A DNA stretch of 64,000 bases from Escherichia coli (GTDB lineage: Bacteria > Pseudomonadota > Gammaproteobacteria > Enterobacterales > Enterobacteriaceae): the NCBI RefSeq assembly GCF_003334305.1, contig NZ_QOWS01000004.1; one strand, given 5' to 3'. The notes beneath the pieces were generated by a model that worked only from the letters and a program-made list of their open reading frames with translations, made no database searches and had not been told where the DNA came from. The translations under genes and the position numbers were made by a program. Below, piece by piece: positions 16,883-16,907 of the stretch (positions are counted from its first letter, which is position 1; each line of letters begins with the position of its first letter).

Positions 16883-16907
16883 TGGCAAGAGTGGTGCGAT
16901 TGTTGCT
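16883..16907 (+). promoter_or_regulatory. Candidate sigma54 promoter(s) upstream of ygfK
   Basis: Two overlapping -24/-12 candidates: TGGCAA-gagtg-GTGC (16883-16897) and TGGTGC-gattg-TTGCT (16892-16907), 70-95 bp upstream of the ygfK ATG. Confidence 0.4.

Follow-up and report, generated by a model that had tools for sequence, protein, structure and literature searches.

Genes and sequence features upstream of ygfK

The window, which is the whole stretch of 64,000 nucleotides that was analysed, carries the E. coli xdhABC-ygeV-ygeWXY-hyuA-arcC-yqeBC-mocA-ygfK-ssnA-ygfM-xdhD region. The first gene of ygfK-ssnA-ygfM-xdhD, ygfK, occupies positions 16980 to 20078 on the plus strand, where it forms an open reading frame of 1032 amino acids that agrees with the RefSeq annotation of the identical E. 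coli region. RefSeq E. coli genomes contain an identical copy of a 501-bp stretch of this locus, of which 5161 of 5426 genomes have 80% or more. XdhD, YgfK and SsnA have recently been described as the opening steps of anaerobic reductive uric-acid degradation; uric acid strongly induces ygfK in E. coli, and the degradation pathway is repressed by glucose.

Since mocA stops at 16658 and the ATG of ygfK lies at 16980, the two genes are separated by a spacer of 321 bp. Its upstream two-thirds are AT-rich, with a GC content of 27-34% over positions 16560-16880. The Shine-Dalgarno sequence of ygfK, AAGGAGAG, is found at 16968-16975 on the plus strand and is invariant in an alignment of 17 genera. 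The segment 16883-16907, TGGCAAGAGTGGTGCGATTGTTGCT, lies 73-97 bp 5' of the ATG and contains two GG-N10-GC registers that are offset by 9 bp. The sequence-only reading had proposed a candidate sigma-54 promoter here on the grounds of two overlapping GG-N10-GC arrangements 70-95 bp upstream of ygfK in an AT-rich intergenic region of 320 bp, and this description agrees with what we measured.

The upstream arrangement, register 1 (17-mer CTGGCAAGAGTGGTGCG, 16882-16898, plus strand), reads TGGCAA-GAGTG-GTGC over 16883-16897 and has its GG at 16884-16885. The downstream arrangement, register 2 (17-mer GTGGTGCGATTGTTGCT, 16891-16907, plus strand), reads TGGTGC-GATTG-TTGCT over 16892-16907, with TGGTGC as the -24 and TTGCT as the -12 element. 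Its GG (16893-16894) and GC (16905-16906) are exactly 10 bp apart, which is the spacing of sigma-54 promoters, and the TT of the -12 element (T16903/T16904) is specific to this register. According to the rule of Bonocora (2015, PMC4591121), which places the start 19 bp past the motif centre, transcription from register 2 is predicted to begin at 16918 on the plus strand, 12 nt past the C of the -12 element, and would give a 5' untranslated region of 62 nt (16980 - 16918).

A small hairpin of doubtful significance, ACCGG-N11-CCGGT at 16923-16943 on the plus strand, would span +6 to +26 of the predicted ygfK mRNA. With -5.8 kcal/mol it is no stabler than shuffled sequences (z=-0.42) and its covariation is weak; hairpins of different sequence occur at the same position in Aeromonas, Photobacterium, Buttiauxella and others. 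The search of 16600-17050 against Rfam returned a chance match only (E=0.88).

Motif strength and published sigma-54 evidence

Counting bare TGG-N9-TGC motifs proved uninformative as evidence, the window containing 50 of them against 46.4 +/- 6.6 expected, which is the chance level. A sigma-54 weight matrix was built from 38 ChIP-bound intergenic E. coli sites (Bonocora 2015, Table 1), the four sites of the window being left out. With this matrix register 2 reached 11.99 bits and register 1 reached 11.12 bits, which are ranks 6 and 11 among the 127,968 positions of the window; one strand of a 321-bp spacer should contain about 0.03 such matches. The bound training sites have a minimum of 8.0 and a median of 16.6. 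Both registers lie inside their range and below the median, in the case of register 2 because its -24 element is TGGTGC and not TGGCAC. Further high-scoring matches of the matrix were seen elsewhere in the window at 56037-56053 (minus strand, 13.3 bits), 20819-20835 (plus strand, 12.4 bits) and 21147-21163 (plus strand, 12.6 bits), the last two of which lie inside ssnA and are without a proper -12 GC.

The promoter is already known, being contained in EcoCyc and in the ChIP-seq table of 2015, and both registers have previously been proposed in print. The ChIP-seq peak OS31 has a fold-above-threshold (FAT) value of 26 and carries, on the plus strand, the motif GTGGTGCGATTGTTGCT, which is exactly register 2; its predicted start lies 62 bp before ygfK and is flagged 'P', predicted in EcoCyc (Bonocora 2015, PLoS Genet, PMC4591121). 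The centre of this peak is 18 bp from the motif centre, the peak ranks about tenth in strength among 50 intergenic peaks, and OS31 is not known to be among the sites validated by ChIP-qPCR. Sigma-54 sites at xdhA (OS29), ygeW (OS30) and ygfT (OS32) are given in the same table (PMC4591121). In microarray experiments, ygfK mRNA increased 2.1-fold when sigma-54 was induced and decreased 2.4-fold when rpoN was deleted (Zhao 2010, PMC2831329), a modest effect of about twofold. The promoter sequence printed in that work, aaccTGGCAAGAGTGGTGCGATtgtt, corresponds to register 1 (PMC2831329), and most of the promoter calls made there were later judged unreliable (Bonocora 2015, PMC4591121). Genomic SELEX with RpoN recovered the ygeV/ygeW spacer, and ygfK is not listed among its targets. 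Sigma-54 ChIP and the rpoN dependence of ygfK transcripts, which the sequence-only reading had suggested as checks, are thus both on record, the former with the motif of register 2 and the latter with the modest changes given above. Together with the conservation of register 2 described below, they support the proposed sigma-54 control of the ygfK operon. What the present analysis adds is modest: a choice between the two published registers, a candidate operator for YgeV and a pair of CRP-type sites.

Conservation of the two registers

The ygfK loci of 80 species were collected, and 450 bp upstream of each were scanned with the sigma-54 matrix. In 74 of the 80 species the best match was the orthologue of register 2, with the consensus CTGGyryGATTGTTGCT starting 66-171 bp before the ATG, so that the element is conserved at the orthologous position. 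Its carriers include Enterobacterales, Aeromonas, Vibrionaceae, Shewanella, Morganella and some Betaproteobacteria; of the six remaining loci, four come from spirochaetes and one from Ideonella, and one lies on a truncated contig. The alignment of 17 genera shows no variation in the TGG, A and TTGC of register 2, whereas the nine bases that belong to register 1 alone lack conservation. In 'E. coli' E69 the score of register 1 drops to 8.6, in E. whittamii to 7.3, and from Citrobacter outward the element is missing, so that within the 80-species comparison it exists only in Escherichia. Of 5169 E. coli genomes, 4617 share an identical 45-mer spanning the two registers, and in the four variant genomes that were inspected the changes lie outside both registers, leaving both intact. 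The population data therefore do not discriminate between the two, whereas the comparison across species, in which only the downstream register is conserved, clearly favours register 2 and would settle the choice on it.

The opposite choice, that register 1, the sequence printed by Zhao (2010, PMC2831329), is the sigma-54 promoter in use, can point to a rank among the best 11 positions of the window, to the intact state of the element in the sampled E. coli variants and to the better quality of its -24 element, CTGGCAA, which the nac promoter shares. The -12 region of register 1, however, is GTGCG and not TTGCW, MEME picked register 2 from the ChIP-seq peaks (Bonocora 2015, PMC4591121), and register 1 is substituted in E69 and E. 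whittamii and missing outside Escherichia, whereas register 2 is invariant. We consider it highly improbable that register 1 serves as the promoter; judged by its distribution among species, it is probably an Escherichia-specific look-alike and not the working register.

A different possibility is that E. coli uses both overlapping registers, which would result either in two starts 9 nt apart or in a higher total occupancy. Both registers score within the top 11 of the window and are kept together in the 45-mer of most E. coli genomes, and the ChIP signal (FAT 26) is strong for a motif of mediocre score. The resolution of ChIP-seq cannot separate two registers that are 9 bp apart. Two sites that overlap in this manner are, however, mutually exclusive, and register 1 bears no sign of selection beyond E. 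coli itself, which leaves joint use quite unlikely in our view.

A conserved palindrome as candidate YgeV enhancer

Upstream of the promoter, at 16710-16722, lies the palindrome TATCA-TAA-TGATA (TATCAtaaTGATA), whose centre is at about -202 from the predicted start and which we designate UAS1, a candidate enhancer of YgeV. Its general form, TMTCA-N3-TGAKA, has five exact matches in the window against 0.12 expected, an enrichment of about 40-fold. Three of the five fall into spacers with a sigma-54 site, namely those of ygeV/ygeW (7042), ygfK (16710) and ygfT/uacT (32080), and xdhA has two copies with one mismatch each, 21 bp apart at 1203 and 1224, so that each of the cluster's four sigma-54 promoters has a palindrome of this type at or close to it. 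Upstream of ygfK it occurs in exact form in 70 of 75 regions (69 of 74 orthologues and the window itself). Its distances from the sigma-54 17-mer are mostly -160/161, -170 to -173, -180 to -183 and -193 to -195. With a period of 10.5 bp these values are phased on the DNA helix (mean resultant length R=0.51, p ~0.008, 18 distinct distances), a figure that is only supportive because neighbouring distance values are not independent. Among the other strong sigma-54 matrix matches in the ygfK loci only 3 of 54 have a palindrome 90-260 bp upstream, and the pairing is thus specific to the ygfK promoter within the loci examined. In its statistics, its sharing among the promoters of the regulon and its phasing, the palindrome fits an inverted-repeat enhancer located 100-250 bp upstream.

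A second, degenerate candidate site, UAS2 (ACTGAttTTGAGA, 16730-16742), follows 20 bp downstream of UAS1, its right half TGAGA being conserved. Nearly all lineages have TTTTGAGAA or TTTGATA about 20 bp past UAS1, and in the Vibrionaceae UAS2 takes the form of a full palindrome with one mismatch, TATTAaatTGATA.

The window also encodes a suitable activator. YgeV (5108-6886, minus strand) contains a Sigma54_activat domain (8e-70), AAA_lid_14, HTH_8 and PAS, and hence both the sigma-54 AAA+ domain and the DNA-binding HTH_8 that a cognate activator should possess. In the YgeV iModulon, ygfK-ssnA-ygfM-xdhD is grouped with xdhABC, ygeWXY, hyuA, ygfT and uacT, and expression of ygfT falls in a ygeV mutant according to a report as cited. 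When YgeV was compared by tblastn with the 80 ygfK loci, none of the other species showed an activator gene within 3 kb of ygfK. On the pattern of its occurrence, the TMTCA-N3-TGAKA palindrome is likely the YgeV enhancer, and ygfK would be expected to depend directly on YgeV.

Whether another regulator, for instance Fur, might bind the palindrome deserves consideration, since ATAATGATAA, which forms part of the Fur-box consensus, is contained in the E. coli copy, and TTATCATAATGATAA matches about 13 of the 19 Fur-box positions. Across species, however, only the TATCA and TGATA arms are kept; the three central base pairs vary (taa, aag, ttg, ata) and TCTCA/TGAGA arms may substitute, which does not fit a Fur box. 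The palindrome moreover tracks the sigma-54 promoters of the cluster at phased, enhancer-like distances. A regulator other than YgeV is therefore unlikely in our estimation, and YgeV remains the preferred candidate. The conservation pattern and the absence of a second half-site led us to reject a Fur box as well as an NtrC half-site (TGGTGCA-like).

Several other copies of the palindrome were observed. One of them, TCTCAcatTGAGA, is situated at 15320-15332 inside yqeC (a minus-strand gene, 15207-15977), 161 bp upstream of the yqeB ATG and about 235 bp downstream of PyqeC, an intragenic sigma-54 promoter known from the literature (TGAGCACGAACCTTGCA, 15560-15576, minus strand). It is kept at the equivalent place in most Enterobacterales, with the central 3 bp variable, and could represent a downstream-located YgeV enhancer for yqeB. 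A further exact match, TATCATCTTGATA, lies at 8886-8898 within the dpaL/ygeX coding region. In Photobacterium/Vibrio loci (L057-L062, L073, L074 and L078) two more palindromes, 29-30 bp apart, are found 400-780 bp upstream of ygfK and thus upstream of the ygfK enhancer, where a neighbouring or divergent sigma-54 operon is probably their target.

CRP-type sites and other elements of the spacer

Phylogenetic footprinting revealed five conserved blocks upstream of the -24 element, the first two being the palindrome UAS1 and the half-site that follows it. The third block, GTGATTTTAATTCTCA at 16788-16803, has TGA..TTC.CA invariant in the 17-genus alignment, and related blocks ending in CTCATTT occur in Aeromonas and Vibrionaceae. 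The sequence TGTGAgttcatTCACA at 16813-16828, centred at -97.5, has the perfect consensus core of a CRP site (site 1), TGTGA-N6-TCACA, which the 64-kb window contains nowhere else without a mismatch; the site is kept in most, not all, of the Enterobacterales examined. The targets of CRP in genomic SELEX include ygfK as well as ygeV<>ygeW and ygfT<>ygfU (Shimada 2011). With a perfect core and a SELEX listing, site 1 corresponds to a sequence bound by cAMP-CRP, through which CRP may influence the expression of ygfK.

Exactly 30 bp downstream of site 1, block 5 (TTCGAgccgccTCACA, 16843-16858, centre -67.5) constitutes a CRP-like site 2, which agrees with the CRP core in 8 of 10 positions. Measured from the sigma-54 17-mer, its form TTnGA-N6-TCAC(G/A) recurs at -37/-38 or -48/-49 in Enterobacterales, Aeromonas, Vibrionaceae and Shewanella. 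From this resemblance we infer that site 2 may likewise be bound by CRP. The IHF core WATCAANNNNTTR has no match with up to one mismatch on either strand of 16659-16980.

The consensus of the PurR box is ACGCAAACGTTTGCGT, and boxes similar to it were seen in three spacers of the cluster: AGCCAAACGTTTTCGT at 7149-7164 (ygeV/ygeW), ACGTAAACGGTTGCTT at 32240-32255, about 35 bp before uacT, and AGTTAAACGATTGCGT at 16666-16681, directly past mocA. The first two are the only PurR-like matches with at most three mismatches in the 64 kb, where 0.5 would be expected and 9 of 100 shuffles reach two. The third has four mismatches to the consensus, its core AAwCGwTTGCG being conserved in several genera.

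Strong CRP sites upstream of ygfK could also be taken to mean that the binding of sigma-54 is non-productive and that ygfK is transcribed by a CRP-activated sigma-70 polymerase, or by read-through from mocA, after which no terminator was found. A binding site is not necessarily a promoter, as Bonocora (2015, PMC4591121) stressed. However, a scan downstream of the CRP sites found no sigma-70-like promoter facing ygfK, the mRNA is rpoN-dependent (Zhao 2010, PMC2831329), and ygfK shares its regulation with the cluster's other sigma-54 operons. Moreover, conservation across bacterial classes extends to the -24/-12 element together with the phased palindrome upstream. We regard non-productive binding as very unlikely.

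A model of ygfK transcription

Taken as a whole, we consider it quite probable that GTGGTGCGATTGTTGCT is the sigma-54 promoter of ygfK-ssnA-ygfM-xdhD, served by an enhancer for YgeV and a bend made by CRP, with register 1 as a look-alike. Sigma-54 RNA polymerase rests on 16891-16907 as a closed complex, a step shown by the published ChIP-seq occupancy. At about -200, YgeV would oligomerise on UAS1 and the neighbouring half-site, and CRP bound at -97.5 and -67.5 would bend the intervening DNA in place of IHF, so that YgeV could contact the closed complex and hydrolyse ATP, whereupon transcription would begin near 16918. Bending by two CRP-type sites instead of IHF would explain the repression of the pathway by glucose.

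A more far-reaching version can be offered tentatively, as a possibility that we rate slightly below an even chance. TATCA-N3-TGATA together with a half-site 20 bp away would then be the operator of YgeV-type activators in Gammaproteobacteria and some Betaproteobacteria, placed on one helix face about 175-180 bp from the -24 element; two CRP dimers, not IHF, would bend the DNA and make the promoter directly cAMP-dependent, and the second register found only in E. coli may raise occupancy.

A better knowledge of this promoter is of practical interest, since the uric-acid pathway of ygfK-ssnA-ygfM-xdhD is being engineered into probiotics against gout. The true -24/-12 register and the probable activator site would be useful for rational de-repression and for annotation of the YgeV regulon, as would the CRP sites inside the loop, whose position is consistent with the reported glucose repression.

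Comparison with known systems

For register 2 there is no difference from OS31 (Bonocora 2015), with which it shares the 17-mer, the strand and the predicted start, register 1 being the alternative printed by Zhao (2010, PMC2831329). Similar to the ygfK promoter are those of xdhA (OS29), ygeW (OS30) and ygfT (OS32), which like ygfK are intergenic sigma-54 ChIP sites, belong to the YgeV iModulon and have TMTCA-N3-TGAKA palindromes roughly 100-215 bp upstream of the sigma-54 17-mer; the ygeV/ygeW and ygfT/uacT spacers are, again like that of ygfK, also targets of CRP. The ygfK promoter differs from the other three in its TGGTGC -24 element and in having the strongest occupancy (FAT 26 against 11, 3 and 3), and it is the only one of the four promoters of the cluster with an overlapping second register.

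In Clostridiales, the DioR sigma-54 regulon (ygeW-ygfK-ssnA-ygeY, dpaL, yqeB and others) also places genes of the same pathway under sigma-54 and a dedicated activator. DioR is a different member of the activator family and belongs to a different phylum; the likeness covers the genes, sigma-54 and the presence of a dedicated activator.

Among the well-known promoters of E. coli, prpBCDE (PrpR, sigma-54, IHF, CRP) and glnAp2 (NtrC) both have a -24/-12 element and, 100-200 bp upstream, inverted repeats at which the activator binds and from which it acts by looping of the DNA; both are also under catabolite control by CRP, whose effect at glnAp2 is inhibitory. The ygfK promoter resembles both in its logic and would be a standard enhancer-dependent sigma-54 promoter; it differs from them in having no detectable IHF core and in carrying two CRP-type sites at the usual position of IHF. 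That glucose represses the pathway suggests a positive role of CRP at ygfK, unlike that at glnAp2.
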